Positions 11,389-50,929 of a stretch of DNA of 64,000 nucleotides are shown here, piece by piece; the stretch's first letter is position 1; each line of letters starts with the position of its first letter. Location of the stretch: the NCBI RefSeq assembly GCF_004010195.1, contig NC_057718.1, positions 7,391,563 to 7,455,562 on the forward strand, written 5' to 3'. The notes beneath the pieces were generated by a model. The model ran no database searches, was not told where the DNA came from, and worked only from the letters and a program-made list of their open reading frames with translations. The position numbers were made by a program, and so were the translations under genes. Source of the stretch: Chiloscyllium plagiosum. Taxonomy: Eukaryota.

Positions 11389-12539
11389 ACAACCAAGTAA
11401 CTCATCATCTGCTGTGTGCTGAATATAAGTAATTATTCAAAAGCATAATGGTTGGGTGTTGTTAAACTTCAGTGCATGCTGCACATGTTATTAACATTTG
11501 TGAATCTGATGTATGCGCTAATCCATACAACATTGTAGTCAACCTTGAAAAGAGAATTTTTCTCCTCCAGTGCATCTGTCCCGCTGCTCCATGAGGGCCA
11601 ATGGTCCCTCTCCCATTTTGATGCTGCACAAACATCTGACGTTCTTGTATGGCAGTGACCTCTGCATACGGAGGTCGATGTGTTGGTCCATCAATCAATA
11701 GAAATGGAACCTATCAGCCACACAGTTTACAGGGAACATGCAGGTGAGGTGTAACATAGCAGAGGTCTTTAAGTTTCTACATTTCAATGTCTCAAAATGC
11801 ACCCAATTTAAACAGCCTCACAGTCAGGAGTCTGAAAAATCGCAGACAGACTGAGATCAGACATTTCTACTTCTCTCAGAGGTCTGTGTGTCTTTGAAGT
11901 TCATGTCTGAAAAGCTGCTGGAAATGGAGTCCTTGAATTTTTTTTAAAGGCAGAAGTAGATAAATTCTCGTTAAGCAGGGTCTGGAAGGTTATTGGGGTC
12001 GAGAAGATTTGAGGCTACAATGAAATCAGCCATCATTTTATTGAATGGTGGAGCAGGCTCGAAGGGTTGAATGGCCTCCTTCTGACTCATAGATTCCAAT
12101 TAAAACGCTTTTAAGAGATGTGTGCTTTTAAACTACACTGTAATTGTTCTGCATAATCCTCAAGGATGAGGCATGTACATGACAAATGTTTTGAAAGCAT
12201 ACATTTAATGCATTGTACAGATTGTTAGGTTCTGTTAAGAATCTGTAAAGATCCAAAAGCTTGCCAGAACTCATCAGCAATGGTGCTGCATTTTTTTTGT
12301 GAGTTGGAAACTTTTATCGTCTTATTAAAAGAAATATATTACTCCATTGAAGAGAGTTCAGAGAAGGTTCACGAGGATGATCCCTGGTATGGAGGCATTG
12401 TCTTATGACTCTTCTCACTGGAGTTAAGAAGAATGAGAGGTGACCTCATTGAAACATATCAGAATCTAAAGGAGCTTGACAGGGTCAACGCTGAGAGGAT
12501 GTTTCCCTTTTTGAGAGAGTCCAGGTCTAGAGTAGAGGA

Positions 12540-12759
12540 GCTGAAAATGTGTTGCTGGAAAAGCGCAGCAGGTCAGGCAGCATCCAAGGAACAGGAGAAT
12601 CGACGTTTCGGGCATTAGCCCTTCTTCAGGATTCCTGAAGAAGGACTTTTGCCCGAAACGTCGGTTCTCCTGTTCCTTGGATGCTGCCTGACCTGCTGCG
12701 CTTTTCCAGCAACACATTTTCAGCCCTGATCTCCAGCATCTGCAGCCCTCACTTTCTCT
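12540..12759. mobile_element. PLE-end palindrome (family C) with back-to-back hammerheads, inside a CR1 fragment
   Basis: About 90-bp arms centred near 12632; TSD TAGAGTAGAGGA at 12528-12539 and 12760-12771. Confidence 0.9.
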
Positions 12760-27550: not shown

Positions 27551-28282
27551 CCATGTATTGCAATTCAGAAATAATTAGAATCAGATGGTTCCAGTGGTTA
27601 GCACACTACATTTCTATTTGTCAAGAATTAGATTTAAATCCGGGCCCACTGACAGTTTGACTGTGTTATTCTTTCAACATTTTATCAAGTAACATCATAA
27701 GAATTAAATTTTCCAAGCATTTCCCAAGCAGCCTACCAATTATAGTAACAGAAACCTCTCAAAGGGAAATGCATTTAAAGTGCATGTAGTATTAGACTAC
27801 TGTTGGTGATATTTTTTAAAGAATCTTTCCATTTTCCTGAACTCTTGGAATGAGTTCACTACTTTGTGGTCGTGATGATTCAGTTGCTTGTCTCGAGAAT
27901 AGACATTTCTTCAAGAATCACATGTCGTAAAGCTGACTGAAATATATTACCTGAAAATCATTTTTTTTAAATTCCAAGAAACACATTTCACATTGCATTG
28001 AATAGTTACAGTAGAGAAGGAGACCTTTCAGCCTCTTCAGTTCTATGCTAGCTCTGTGTTAAGAGCGACTCAGCTCATCCCACTGTCCCCAGTTTTCCCT
28101 GGAACCCTGCAAATTTTCTCTATTCAGACAATTATCCAACTTCCTCTGGAAAGCCGCAAGATTGAATCCGCCTCCACCATACCCTCAGACAGTGCATTTC
28201 CAGATCCAATTCCAAACCTTTTCCTCATGTATCCTTTGGTTCCTTTGTTAATCACTTTGACTGATGTCCTCCTTCTTTTCAG

Positions 28283-28470
28283 GAGAAAGTGAGGTCTGCA
28301 GATGCTGGAGATCAGAGATGGAAATGTGTTGCTGGAAAAGCGCAGCAGGTCAGGCAGCATCTAGGGAACAGGAGAATCGACGTTTCGGGCATTTAATGCC
28401 CGAAACATCGATTCTCCTGTTCCCTAGATGCTGCCTGACCTGCTGCGCTTTTCCAGCAACACATTTCCAT
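28283..28470. mobile_element. PLE-end palindrome (family C)
   Basis: Near-perfect hairpin centred near 28394; TSD CTCCTTCTTTTCAG at 28269-28282 and 28471-28484. Confidence 0.9.
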
Positions 28471-38687: not shown

Positions 38688-38883
38688 GAGGAGAAAGTGA
38701 GGTCTGCAGATGCTGGAGATCAGAGCTGAAAATGTGTTGCTGGAAAAGCGCAGCAGGTCAGGCAGCATCCAGGGAACAGGAGAATCAACGTTTCGGGCAT
38801 AAGCCCTTATGCCCGAAACGTCGATTCTCCTGTTCCCTGGATGCTGCCTGACCTGCTGCGCTTTTCCAGCAACACATTTTCAG
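38688..38883. mobile_element. PLE-end palindrome (family C)
   Basis: Near-perfect arms; 15-bp TSD CATAGACTTTTCTTT at 38673-38687 and 38884-38898. Confidence 0.92.
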
Positions 38884-45878: not shown

Positions 45879-47068
45879 CTGCAGTTTTGCTGTAAAGAAA
45901 CTGGAACTACACTGCAGGATTGATGGTCAATGTCTGCAAAGTATAGAAATTATAAGTAAGATGTCTGCCTTTTCTAGTCTCTATTTGTATGCATAGCTTC
46001 ACTGTGCAAACTCTCAGACAGCAACCCTTCATACCTTCAGATTATTATAACCAGTCCCTGGGCAAGCTTTCCAATTTGTTATAGTTCCAGACAAAATATC
46101 CCAAATGGTAATGTGCCAAGTGAGGTGGGATGAACAGGGTCGCCTTGGTCATCCACCCATCTCCTCTCGGTTGGTCAAAATAGGTTTATTTAAGAAGAAT
46201 CACTTCTCTTGAGGATACATTTCTCATGAGGATACATTTCTCATGAACCAAAGGTGCTTGTGGTCTTAAAAGGAGTCATTTTATCCAGGCTTTCTTGAAT
46301 GAACAAGAGTTAATTAACAACTAATCACAAAAAAATGATAGTGTAACACTCATGTACACAGATTAGGGAAGAGATGAATCCAAAAGATAAAAATAAACAA
46401 CAAATTACATAAATCAATCTCTGAATTGTTTATGAAGGGTAGATATGATAGCATTTGGATGGCACTTATGATATTAACATTGGCAATTGAAAAGCCAATT
46501 TTGAGATTCTTGGATTTGTAGCATGGTGAAAATTCTGTTGCGCTGATTCCCTTCAACAGTGAGTGAATTCCTGCCCTCAGGATAGGAGAGAGAGTCTTTC
46601 TCTTTGTTTTACCTGCAGTGCTTGGGTGTTTAAAATGGTTTTTCACAATGTTGTAACTTTCACTGCACTCAGGTCCACACCCAAAGCAGTGGTGAATAGT
46701 GATTACAGCTACAGTCAGTTGTTAACCTTTATTTTTGCATGTATTCCCAGAAGATAAAATGGAAATGTTTGCCAAAGGTTTATTTTTCTTGTAATTAAGC
46801 CTCTCTTTGTTTGTAAAGTTTGTCTGACAGTTTATGGGTGTGACATTCACATGTGCCTCAAACTGGTCAATCATGTCAAACTATGGCTAAACAAAAACAT
46901 GTGGCCCATTCACCAGGATCTGAATCTGAAAGGTTAATCCCTAACTTCTCCTTAATTTGCATTTCATTATTGTACATAAAGTGAACATGGCTTCATGTAC
47001 AACCAGGGAGATTTCTCAGTTAAAAGGAAATGCTTTCACGAAGGAGTGATGGAAAATAACTATTGGGA

Positions 47069-47545
47069 AGGAGAAAGTGAGGGCTGCAGATGCTGGAATC
47101 AGAGATGAAAGTGTGTTGCTGGAAAAGCGCAGCAGGTCAGGCAGCATCCGAGAAGCAGGGGAATCCACGTTTCAGACAAAAGCCCTTCATCAGGAGATAG
47201 CTGAACAAATTAAAATGAATGATCCTGATATTTTACAAGTGACAAAACAATGCAAACTTCACAAAAATGATTAAAAAGGAATAAGGAAGTTCTTGAATTA
47301 AGGCAGATACAGTGATGCAGAATTCGTCTGAAGGATCTTAAATTTTGACTCTATCTACTTCTTTATCAGGCTCCCACATGGAACTTTGACGGAGGCCTTG
47401 TTGAAATACATATAAACTGTATCCATTGTTCTACCCTCAACTGTGTATCTGGTCTGAGCCCTGAAGAAGGGCTCATGCCCGAAACGTCGATTCTCCTGCT
47501 CCTTGGACGCTGCCTGACCTGCTGCGCTTTTCCAGCAACACATCG
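47069..47545. mobile_element. Composite PLE palindrome containing captured local DNA
   Basis: Arms at 47069-47195 and 47461-47543; TSD ATAACTATTGGGA at 47056-47068 and 47546-47558; interior is a copy of 47781-47947 plus an inverted copy of 48479-48575. Confidence 0.92.
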
Positions 47546-47658
47546 ATAACTATTGGGAGGCAAGTTAAATAATTGGCATTATATTTGAAAGAAATAATTG
47601 GGATTAATTGAGATAGACTTGATAGGGAAGACAACAGCATTATCGGTGAGATAGGTGT

Positions 47659-47780
47659 AAGTGAGGACTGCAGATGTTGGAGATTAGAGTCAAGAGTGTG
47701 GCGCTGGAAAAGCACAGCAGGTCAGGCAGCATCCGAGGAGCAGGAAAATCCACGTTTCGGACAAAAGCACTTCATCAGGA
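47659..47780 (-). mobile_element. Solo PLE end (family C)
   Basis: Ends at the hammerhead (ttcatcagga); flanked by AGATAG. Confidence 0.85.
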
Positions 47781-48269
47781 AGATAGCTGAACAAATTAAA
47801 ATGAATGATCCTGATATTTTACAAGTGGCAAAACAATGCAAATTTCACAAAAAAGATTAAAAAGGAATAAGGAAGTTCTTGAATTAAGGCAGATACAGTG
47901 ATGCAGAATTCTTCTGAAGGATCTTAAATTTTGACTCCATCCACTTCATAAAAATATGACTCAAAATTCAGAAATGTCTTTCTTGTAACAGTGACAAAGC
48001 ACGTGCTTATATGATTTTGGGAGAACACAGAATGTATTGGGACTGGTTTGTTCAGCTGGCAAGTTGGTTGAAATGTGTATTGAATAATGCCAATAGCAAG
48101 ATAGCCCTGCACTGCCCAGGTAGATTTATAAAAGCTGCGTCCTCTCTGTGCCCTAAACAGGAAAACTTTGGTGAATGAAGTTGCCACACAATGCAAGAGA
48201 AACAAGCAGCATTCTGATATTAGCAAAATGTAGAATTTACCTGGTATAACAGAGAATTGGAGGACAGCC

Positions 48270-49878
48270 AATTCAGTTCCACTCTGCAAAAAGGGTAGAG
48301 ATAAAGCAGGGAATTATAGACCAGTGAGTCTCACATAGTGGTAGGGAGACTATTGGAGAAAATTCTGAAGAAGAGAATTAATCTCCAATTGGAGAAGTGA
48401 GGTTGATTAGGGATAGTCAGCACACCTTTGCAGAGGGATGCCATGCCTAATAATTTTGGTTGATATTTTTGAGGTCATGACCAGATACACAGTTGAGGGT
48501 AGAACAATGGATGCAGTTTATATGTATTTCAACAAGGCCTCCGTCAAAGTTCCATGTGGGAACCTGATAAAGAAGATAAGAGGAGAAGGTGGGGACTGCA
48601 GATGCTGGAGGTCAGAGTTGAGAGTGTAGCGCTGGAAAAGCACAGCAAGTCAGGCAGCATCCGAGGAGCAGGAGAGTCGATGTTTCGGGCATAAACCCTT
48701 CCTCAGGAATAGAAAATAAGAGTGCATGGGATGCATTGTAGCTTGGCAAGTTGGACTCAAAATTGAAGACAGAGGATGGTGGTTGAGGGCTGTTTGACTG
48801 TTCCTATCATATACCACAGGGATCAGTGCTCGGTCCCTTATTGTTCATGATACACAAAAAATAGTATGGAAGAAAATGTTGAGGAAGATGATAAGTAAGT
48901 TTGTCGGTGACGTGAAGATTAGCTGGGTGGAGGTTTTAAATCAGACACAGGTATAGACAGATTGTGCAGATCAGTGACAGAATGGAATTTCACTCTGATA
49001 ATTGTAAGGTGATGCACTTTGGTACGAGTAACAAGCAAAGGGAGTACTCAATGAATGGCAGGACACTAGGAAGCTCGGAGGAACAGAAGGATCTTAGGGT
49101 GCTTGTCCACAGATCCCTGAAGGTGGTGGGACAAGTTAACAAAATAGTTAAGGAGGCATATAGGACACTTACCTTTATCAGTTGTGGTATAGATTATAAG
49201 ATCAGGGGGAGATTATGTGGAGCTGTACAGGACTTTGGTTAGACCACAGCTGGAGCACTGTTTGCAGTTCTGCATTATAGGAAGGATGTGATTGCACTGA
49301 ACAGGGAATCAAAGGAGATTCATCAGGAGGTTATCTGGGATGGAGCATTTTAATAATGTAGAGAGGCCATATAAGGTCAGGTTGTTTTCTTTAGAGCAGA
49401 GAAGGCTGAGGGTGATTAATGTGTAGGAGAAAGTGAGGGCTGCAGATGCTGGAGATCACAGTTGAGATTGTGGTGCTGGAAAAGCACAGCTGGTCAGGCA
49501 GCATCCAAGGTGCAGGAGAATGGACGTTTCTCGTAAGTCCTTCATCAGGAATGATTAACGTGAGAAGAAAGCTTGTCCCTTTAGTTGAAGAGTCATTAAC
49601 AAGTGGGCAAAATGTTTAGGTGACAGGCAGGAGGTTTGGTTGGGATTTGAATGTTTTTTTATCCAGAGGGTGATGGGTATCTAGAATGCACTGTCTAGGA
49701 GGGACATTGAGGTGGGAAACCTCATAGCCTTTAAACAATACTTGGATGAGCACTTGAAACATCACAAAATTCAAAGTTATGGGTCTTGTGCAGGAAATGT
49801 AGATTTAGAATAGTTTTTGTCAGTGTGGTCTCAATGGGCCAAAGTGCTTCTTCTGAATGGTATGATTCTGTGATTCTG
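48270..49878 (+). mobile_element. Decayed CR1 LINE ORF2 with two PLE-end insertions (about 48582-48710 and 49425-49551)
   Basis: [19 protein letters not shown] remnants; PLE TSDs AGAA(G/A)ATAAGAG and TGATTAA(T/C)GTG. Confidence 0.88.
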
Positions 49879-50929
49879 TAGGTCAGATTGTAAGATAGCC
49901 CTAGGTATGAAATTAATAGCATTTGAAATTCTCACAATACCAATGTGTTAAATATATATATTTTTTCTTTATGAGGTGCCTGTGCAACTGGCTGGGTCAA
50001 CTGACATTGCTCATTTCTAGTCATATTTGACAAGATGGTGGTGAGCTGCCTTCTTGCAGTCCATGCGCTGTAGGTAGACCCACAATGCCGTGAGGGAGAG
50101 AATTCCAGGTTCGACCCAATGACCGTCAAGGAACGGCGATATATTTCCAGGTCAGAATGGTAAGTGGCTTGGAAGGGAACTTGTAGAGGGTAGTCTTCCC
50201 ATGTGTCTGCTGCCCTTATCCTTCTAGATGGAAATGGTCACGAATTTGGAAGGTGATTTTTAATATCTCTCAATCAATATCTGGTCATTATCACATTGTT
50301 ATTTGTGGAACCTTTGTTGGATTACCTTGAACATTTCCTGCAAATCAACACTGACCAACCACACTTCATTTTATTTTTTGTAAACCATTTTAATAAGCAG
50401 TACCTTTAAAGACAATATATGTTAGGGTGTATAATTCTGAAGGAGTTACATGAGCAGAGGAATCTGGGTGTCCATGTGTATATATCATTGAAGGTGGCAA
50501 GATAGGCAGAGGAAGCAGTAAGTAAAGCATACAGTACTCTCAGTTTCATTAATAGCAGCACAGAGTCCAAGAGCAGGGAGATGAAATTGGACATGTAAGA
50601 GACACTTGTTAGATTTTAGCTGGAATATTATGTAATATTGCGGGCAACACATTATGGAGAGTGTGCAGAAGCTACTTACAAGGATATTTCCAGGAAAGAG
50701 AACTTCAGATATCAGGGTCAGTTGAAGAACCTTGGATTGCTCTTTTTGTAAAGAAGAAAGCTGAGAAGAGATTTGATGGAGGTTTTCATCATCATGAACA
50801 AGCTGGATAGTGTAGATAGGGAGAAACTGTTCGTAATCTCGGGGCACAGAATTCAAACGACTTGCAAAAGGAGCAAATATGATGTGAGAAACATTTTTTT
50901 CTGTCAATGAGTAATGGGTAAGGAATGCA

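Follow-up and report, generated by a model that had tools for sequence, protein, structure and literature searches.

How does a retroelement insertion come to hold, between its own two arms, pieces of the DNA that lies next to it? The question is raised by positions 47056-47558 of a 64-kb window (the whole stretch of Chiloscyllium plagiosum contig NC_057718.1 that was analyzed, on which positions are given), where two end fragments, or arms, of a Penelope-like element (PLE) face each other across DNA that is foreign to the element. Searching the window and the contigs of the genome (3.56 Gb), we found that a perfect 13-bp target-site duplication (TSD; ATAACTATTGGGA, 13/13 identical in a repeat scan) brackets an insert of 477 bp, in which arms 47112-47194 and 47460-47542 pair as an inverted repeat with 88% identity and enclose a host-derived center of 264 bp from two nearby sources. 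This is a single TSD-bounded insertion that is absent from a relative, organism C; the resident elements and the donors of the center are older. We consider it probable that free 3′ ends of the element's complementary DNA (cDNA) copied nearby chromosomal DNA templates during integration, and in the best reading of the locus they entered by homology near a resident arm and otherwise by microhomology. The original prediction, made from the letters of the window alone, had described the order TSD, arm, direct copy, inverted copy, TGAGCC and inverted arm, and sequence comparison together with the repeat scan bore out every one of these parts. The locus and its surroundings are made up as follows (LINE, long interspersed nuclear element).

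47056..47068, no strand: left TSD copy, ATAACTATTGGGA, from the repeat scan; organism C, whose site is empty, has one copy only.
47069..47129, minus strand (PLE sense): outer part of the left arm, a tail of ~45 nt and the arm start, of the young-subfamily type (10/13 informative sites young-like).
47130..47149, minus strand: 20-nt stretch common to the young subfamily and the neighbor in the arm alignment, the putative place of a template switch.
47150..47194, minus strand: inner part of the left arm, with the variants of the resident neighbor (7/9 informative sites) and an unbroken alignment into the flank.
47195..47361, plus strand: direct copy of donor 1 (47781-47947), 161/167 identical (96%, 6 mismatches; repeat scan); only 2 genome copies.
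47358..47361, no strand: CTTC joint, common to both donor ends, from junction comparison.
47358..47454, minus strand: inverted copy of donor 2 (48479-48575), 95/97 identical (98%), with mismatches at 47371 and 47420; sample X1 has the donor's C at 47420.
47455..47460, no strand: TGAGCC, a short inverted copy of GGCTCA in the right arm, from junction comparison and a hairpin check.
47460..47543, plus strand: right arm, young subfamily, without tail, starting with a CUGANGA...GAAAC motif and ending AC-rich in ...CAGCAACACAT.
47546..47558, no strand: right TSD copy, from the repeat scan; a CG filler (47544-47545) separates it from the right arm.
47653..47781, minus strand: resident older PLE end, solo and with tail, from the arm search; the putative homologous entry point; present in organism C.
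47781..47947, plus strand: donor 1, unique DNA at the inner end of the resident element, 2 genome copies.
48479..48575, plus strand: donor 2, the end of an old LINE reverse-transcriptase fragment cut at 48576 by a resident PLE end, from the genome search.
48581..48710, minus strand: second resident PLE end, solo and with tail, inside the LINE fragment, from the arm search; present in organism C.

The captured DNA and its donors

The 167-bp piece has exactly two copies in a genome-wide search, itself and its neighbor. The 97-bp piece has 26 genome matches, of which the sole near match is the local one (98%), all others reaching at most 87% over parts of it, and the LINE reverse-transcriptase fragment that contains it returns 2816 candidates at ~75% identity; by these comparisons the local copy at 48479-48575 is clearly its donor. 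The original prediction had implied that the captured DNA is unique, which holds for donor 1 but not for the second piece: thousands of related sequences exist for this old LINE fragment. Each donor is continuous with the DNA around it, whereas each copy breaks off at a junction, and copying therefore went from donor to insertion. The donors lie 419 bp and 1024 bp away. Each had been predicted to adjoin another PLE end, and each does, but at different kinds of element end, because donor 1 directly adjoins the inner end of the resident copy at 47653-47781, whereas 6 nt separate donor 2 from the copy at 48581-48710, whose outer, tail end faces it. The old LINE fragment itself occupies 48240-48575 and 48716-48830 on the plus strand, split by that second resident end; 48570-48582 and 48710-48722 match at 11/13 positions and are probably the decayed TSD of the resident insertion.

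The left arm is a chimera, young on the outside and with the variants of the older neighbor on the inside, as the original prediction had it. Informative sites are those that distinguish the resident neighbor from the consensus of the young subfamily (six arms, three pairs). The arm is young-like at 10/13 of them up to 47129 (one site is neighbor-like and two are neither) and neighbor-like at 7/9 sites from 47150, the two exceptions being letters private to the neighbor; the change along the arm is significant (Fisher p = 0.0045). The outer part is 88.9% identical to the young reference Y12, and the arm and the first copy together align without a break to the resident element at 47653-47781 and its flank. 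The pattern supports a template switch through homology within the 20-nt stretch that both sequences share. The chimeric arm rules out a plain read-through copy of the neighbor, and 5′ or 3′ transduction on a read-through transcript, in which the whole adjoining arm would derive from the source copy, was likewise rejected, the outer 61 nt of the arm being of the young subfamily at 10/13 sites.

The two captured pieces meet, as predicted, in a microhomology of 4 nt, CTTC (47358-47361), which is found in both donors. At the far end of the center, TGAGCC complements the right arm's own GGCTCA, a private G included, and would form an 8-bp stem with a 5-nt loop; the LINE copy meets it without clean microhomology, both templates having CATGA with one A missing. 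Nearby donors, short microhomology and frequent inversion are traits of templated insertions by strand switching, and they are seen here; three further TSD-verified loci, described below, all have inverted copies from donors 117-1067 bp away.

The element and its normal product

Twenty arm copies lie in the window, and among them are five head-to-head pairs with TSDs of 12-15 bp. The four pairs other than ours (1786-2003, 12538-12758, 28281-28457 and 38688-38870) have no spacer and hairpin loops of 3-4 nt, and in every window pair one arm reaches the extreme end of the element while the other stops ~45-55 nt short of it, at ...CCAGCAACACA. The two arms of a pair have private variants in common, an observation with which twin priming and self-priming agree equally. 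Over all loci, 20 pairs are TSD-verified (TSDs of 9-16 bp), and they are inverted, tailed on one arm and 5′-truncated; host DNA occupies the center in 0/14 of the unselected ones, which include all four (4/4) other window pairs.

Longer copies elsewhere reach at least 1 kb further inward, or upstream, with ragged left ends. An open reading frame (ORF) just upstream of the arm in one of them (L036:1694-2188, minus strand) is 59-70% identical to the shark proteins P0001 and P0002, in which RVT_1 (weak, below the cut-off) is followed by GIY-YIG (in P0002 at 23.2 bits against a cut-off of 22.6). Pfam returned no match for three frames of the PLE ORF region, and a GIY-YIG family scan of the whole genome gave one match only, which is unrelated. 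Because reverse transcriptase is followed by a C-terminal GIY-YIG in the relatives of the upstream ORF, the repeat is, on this indirect evidence, the 3′ end of a true PLE with the canonical domain order. The inverted arm had been said to start at a hammerhead: a CUGANGA...GAAAC-GUC motif is indeed visible by eye at 47461-47489 and in other copies, but Rfam found no hammerhead or other family in 46000-50000 at E<=1, nor any in the whole window at the gathering score. PLE hammerheads are described in PMC6155905 as minimal forms that lack helix III.

Two papers on PLEs describe a 'tail' of 30-40 bp at one end only and an inverted 5′-truncated copy as typical (PMC8557442), a PLE protein that nicks and extends both strands in vitro, and in vitro reverse transcription from two start sites, an AC-rich inner one and an outer one, which flank the tail (PMC11167929). 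The asymmetry of our arms fits this tail and these two start sites, and the palindrome is therefore the family's normal product. The palindrome that the original prediction named is in itself not special: head-to-head pairs of a tailed and a tail-less arm, with TSDs of 12-16 bp, are the standard form, and only the 264-bp center is unusual.

Assembly support and presence in relatives

Contigs from four sequencing runs were aligned over 46600-48800, two from separate studies of the same species (X1 and X15, organism A), one from relative B (X5) and one from relative C (X8). Those of X1 bridge 46891-47093 (TSD/arm), 47168-47298 (arm/copy), 47269-47484 (copy/inverted copy/TGAGCC/arm) and 47515-47684 (arm/TSD). 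At 47420 the assembly has T and the X1 contig C, as in the donor, through polymorphism or consensus error; X1 is therefore no mere echo of the assembly. X15 contigs span both outer junctions, and one of them has the letters specific to the copy at 47828, 47843, 47854 and 47912 before it passes to the inverted LINE piece; at its ends this contig agrees with the donors, an effect that we ascribe to path switching across >31 identical nt. Misassembly had been named as a danger to the prediction, and it does not account for the locus: the internal junctions are crossed by contigs of two samples of the species. Further contig joints in the alignment output derive from other genome copies, with sides of <=28 nt, and were discarded, and depth over the copies is nonzero even in organism C, where the site is empty, since donor contigs fit both places.

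In organism C, a 508-nt contig joins 47054 directly to 47545 and continues into the resident element, and thus the empty site with a single TSD copy that had been predicted for a related species exists; both donors and the second resident element are represented among the remaining X8 contigs. Organism B has the site filled, since one of its contigs passes from the flank into the left arm and covers 25 nt of it. Divergence in unique sequence amounts to 47/1477 between A and B and to 66/1508 between A and C, and between copies and donors there are differences at 8/264 positions. One of these is 47828, where organisms B and C both carry the letter of the copy; this difference therefore arose in the donor after copying.

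Recurrence across the genome

Among unselected samples, none of 11 other TSD-verified pairs in the loci examined has host DNA at its center (0/11). A 31-mer specific to the young subfamily has 78,538 exact genome matches, and in its first 100 places 0/15 young pairs have a host-DNA center, 12 being inverted pairs with ordinary spacing and three wider ones (L073-L075) having longer arms; a 50-kb random genome sample held one ordinary pair. We also searched the genome with a pattern made of the inner ends of both arms, in which two positions were required to differ from the interior of the element and gaps of 75-322 nt were allowed, an exact pattern that is strict and built to find spacers, so that its counts are lower bounds. 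It gave 31 matches at 29 places and recovered the 47056-47558 locus as a control. Ten places were read as sequence, and three of them are further TSD-verified local captures, such as the original prediction had expected from a genome-wide search for TSD-flanked pairs with locally templated spacers.

In L079 (TSD of 15 bp), the left arm continues unbroken into a 67-nt inverted copy (98%) whose donor lies 117 bp away and abuts the inner end of a resident arm; the sequence has only 2 genome copies, and at both comparable sites the left arm has the letter of its partner arm instead of that of the resident arm. L083 (TSD of 15 bp) holds a 142-nt inverted copy (99%) of a donor 1067 bp away, other genome matches reaching at most 80%, and L084 (TSD of 14 bp) a 171-nt inverted copy (98%) of a donor 624 bp away, with other matches partial and at most 91%. 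Two more places, compared with the genome by 67-mers, are candidates with a local inverted second copy (88%) at distances of 583 bp and 745 bp. The original prediction held capture to be guided by homology, which suits the first donor of our locus and its chimeric arm, but the donors of L083 and L084, two of the three further cases, have no adjoining PLE arm; homology to a resident copy is therefore one route, not the rule. Copying can also be non-contiguous, as L073 (G000:C1:1789200-1790250) indicates: at 385-660 of that locus, a TSD-flanked young pair has at its center a 64-nt piece of PLE interior from ~750 nt upstream together with two exact copies and a third variant of the 17-mer GGCGGAAATGACGAAGG, which would reflect repeated jumps within element sequence.

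Most other pattern matches, L080, L081 and L082 included, proved to be tandem arms, neighboring pairs or PLE-derived pieces. L078 was not counted as a capture: its 15-bp TSD encloses a 274-bp spacer that is a dispersed repeat unit, present by nested insertion or by capture. That center, at 546-819 of L078 (G000:C60283), is the full unit of an AT-rich repeat with 257 candidates at 72-80% and one 97% copy at C50:560884-561157, and its last 50 nt recur at the contig start. In L080 (G000:C28:33628000-33632700), at 2069-2525, one 14-bp TSD surrounds two direct tailed arms and, after them, a tail-less arm in inverted orientation; the 75 nt that separate the direct arms are themselves a dispersed repeat (1103 candidates at ~92%; also at C5:107872639 and C13:49330142) and probably another part of the element.

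A proposed route from insertion to capture

We posit the following sequence of events. A young PLE would have inserted at ATAACTATTGGGA after the lineage of organism C had split off, and both staggered nicks would have primed DNA synthesis, as is usual for the family, the left nick giving an arm from the very end of the element, with its tail, and the right nick a tail-less arm from the internal AC-rich site. In normal joining, the inward-growing 3′ ends would be united by a snap-back or microhomology of a few bases into a spacer-less head-to-head pair. At our locus, the left strand may instead have quit its template within the 20-nt stretch that also occurs in the resident element, 586 bp downstream. 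Paired there, it would have been extended through the inner end of that element and over 167 nt of flanking DNA. The LINE fragment 1 kb downstream would have supplied a second stretch, copied from its opposite strand; an abortive snap-back of 6 nt (TGAGCC) would have taken place on the right arm, and the pieces would have been joined at CTTC. Serial template switching, as originally proposed, survives insofar as the center was copied from two neighboring places, but three jumps by one strand are not required: judged by the junctions, two converging strands that made one switch each and met at CTTC would fit equally well as a single strand with three switches. The timing at integration, the use of DNA rather than RNA templates and the assignment of each switch to a strand are inferred, not observed.

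Timing of the capture and rival explanations

Three lines of evidence bear on timing. In L083, GCTTAT follows directly after the arm's ...CAGG, with the same hairpin register and 5-nt loop as TGAGCC in our locus, and this register also occurs at several spacer-less centers among the genome-pattern matches; the 6-nt snap-back thus looks like the normal joining step, started and then abandoned. In L084, the palindrome continues beyond the arms for 10-11 nt of captured DNA and the landing site lacks microhomology, an arrangement that would be simplest if the second arm was made after the capture. Finally, captures and donors pooled over the four loci have diverged at 14/640 positions and the arms from each other at 7/276, which is not lower (Fisher p = 0.81), and at non-CpG sites the figures are 12/640 and 1/276 (Fisher p = 0.12), small counts in a test of low power that gene conversion between arms could bias. 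Snap-back, L084 symmetry and divergence lean towards capture during the completion of insertion, as the original prediction had it, with the PLE interior at the center of L073 on the same side, none of them being decisive; later break repair predicts the same sequence.

Such repair is the rival that we take most seriously, while thinking it unlikely. A spacer-less pair would have been inserted first, and the palindrome would later have broken near its center, through hairpin or cruciform processing or at a stalled fork, to be mended by repair synthesis that used first the nearby homologous element and next the LINE fragment as its template and left microhomology at the joints. Fold-back templated inverted insertions are known at yeast breaks from excerpts of PMC11724301, the divergence of captures from donors (8/264) is compatible with any time since insertion, and TGAGCC fits a remnant of the original left arm, comparable to other pairs whose arms end unevenly. 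Yet the captures are not younger than their own palindromes by divergence, and L083 has a complete arm on the far side of its capture, even though this account requires the 6-nt snap-back to be the beginning of a truncated partner arm; disrupted centers with host DNA are missing from the unselected pairs (0/14), and the arms are short (83-127 bp). Reverse transcriptases in general exercise copy-choice between homologous RNAs, so the switches could also have been made at integration onto a read-through transcript of donor 1 and the resident element and then onto a LINE-sense transcript. Such RNA-templated capture strikes us as improbable: an arm with its upstream flank does have the shape of 5′ read-in, and read-through transcripts and template jumps have been proposed for PLE inserts (excerpts of PMC3846280), but the two pieces would require transcripts of opposite strands, the donor lies within ~1.1 kb in 6/6 local-donor cases with inverted copies in 5/6, and no PLE arm adjoins the donor in L083 or L084. 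We give hardly any credence to an artefact or coincidence (misassembly, two independent insertions or plain segmental duplication); PLE inverted structures are reported to trouble assemblies in the consulted part of PMC8557442, but here the junctions are crossed by contigs of two samples, the copies differ from the donors at 8 positions, the relative has a clean empty site, and one perfect 13-bp TSD surrounds the 477-bp insert.

Several observations weigh against capture from nearby DNA during integration. No feature of the sequence distinguishes synthesis during integration from the later repair of a break at the palindrome center, TGAGCC is equally readable as the arm remnant just mentioned, and a palindrome that breaks leaves two ends whose 3′ sequences are the same and for which the sister arm can serve as template; the low power of the divergence test and its exposure to gene conversion belong here as well. 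The inner left arm differs from the neighbor more (5/46) than the flank does (6/167). Organism B shows the left junction only, the 264-bp center lying beyond its contig. The further cases come from a pattern designed to find spacers, two spacers have no second copy anywhere in the genome, and host-DNA capture, while recurrent, is rare relative to the size of the family.

Comparison with known insertions

Much of the locus is shared with canonical endonuclease-containing (EN+) PLE insertions as excerpts of PMC8557442 and PMC11167929 portray them: head-to-head arms, a one-sided tail, an AC-rich tail-less end, a variable TSD, 5′ truncation and, in longer copies, an upstream ORF with reverse transcriptase and C-terminal GIY-YIG. 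In those insertions, however, the inverted copies abut, whereas here 264 bp of nearby host DNA stand between them and one arm is chimeric. Capture between PLE repeats is itself known. In Adineta vaga, according to the consulted portions of Arkhipova, Yushenova and Rodriguez 2013 (PMC3846280), unrelated sequences are captured between solo PLE repeats with TSDs and one family has host-DNA spacers, and a self-priming model was drawn from palindromes at the inverted junction. Both systems frame non-element DNA with PLE repeats and a TSD, but the rotifer captures are genes or kb-scale spacers between direct repeats, read as in-trans mobilization through RNA, and no donor beside the insertion is described in those portions; the shark pieces measure 67-264 bp and come from donors 0.1-1.1 kb off on the same DNA, most of them in inverted orientation, and a homologous crossover marks one entry. 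What is new relative to the rotifer captures of 2013 is the locally templated center of an inverted pair, and a literature search returned no report of PLE inverted pairs with centers templated from DNA beside the insertion.

L1 reportedly undergoes twin priming, and its new cDNA is said to invade nearby endogenous L1 copies and produce chimeras, in the work of Ostertag and Kazazian 2001, Gilbert et al. 2002 and Symer et al. 2002. The likeness lies in the priming at both nicks, the microhomology joints and the ability of cDNA to pair with a resident copy. L1 chimeras reportedly delete the intervening DNA, whereas here the flank was copied, the strand returned and DNA was duplicated; the shark element also differs from L1 in having no poly(A) and a GIY-YIG endonuclease. 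Local donors, inversion, microhomology of 0-4 nt and short snap-backs are said to mark the products of microhomology-mediated break-induced replication (MMBIR) and of fork stalling and template switching (FoSTeS) too. They are likewise features of the fold-back insertions at yeast breaks in excerpts of PMC11724301, which span ~5-34 bp, in contrast to the 67-171 bp of the pieces here, which sit specifically between the ends of a retroelement insertion.

How PLE insertion is completed, and how its inverted and tandem structures arise, is stated to be undefined in PMC8557442 and PMC11167929. Our locus and its three verified siblings preserve junctions, donors, an empty-site outgroup and a recurring register of abortive snap-back, and they therefore constrain models of insertion; taken together, the sequences argue for free 3′ ends at the center, switching by homology or microhomology, and a reach of ~1 kb. 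As a tentative generalization, which we hold with distinctly less confidence than the reading of the locus itself, PLE integration may include a stage at which 3′ ends tipped with cDNA can freely explore the chromosomal DNA within a kilobase, with an abortive 6-nt snap-back and then nearby copying, usually of the opposite strand, as a regular side reaction. If so, such scars would be natural read-outs of the undefined second half of PLE transposition and would add a steady supply of small local duplications and inversions to PLE-rich genomes. The four loci themselves show how an abundant retroelement duplicates and inverts host DNA beside it on a small scale. The effect on the genome is minor, the events being rare and the pieces short, and PLE repeats that frame foreign DNA were already known.

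Additional features

Two places elsewhere in the genome (G000:C9:90642792-90642992 and C27:3581099-3581289) have the inner end of an arm, 43-55 nt of other DNA and then the tail of a second arm; the second arm belongs to a head-to-head pair, and new insertions may prefer sites beside resident copies. Another abundant family of palindromes is recognizable by a different hammerhead-like motif, CACCTGATGAAGGAGC...CGAAAGC, and by a center of ~280 bp (e.g., G000:C1:4009086-4009367), and it accounts for most of the 289 matches of our first, short-anchor genome pattern. Just to the right of the insertion, at 47567-47616, lies a 25-bp tandem duplication (AAATAATTGG...; 76% identity).

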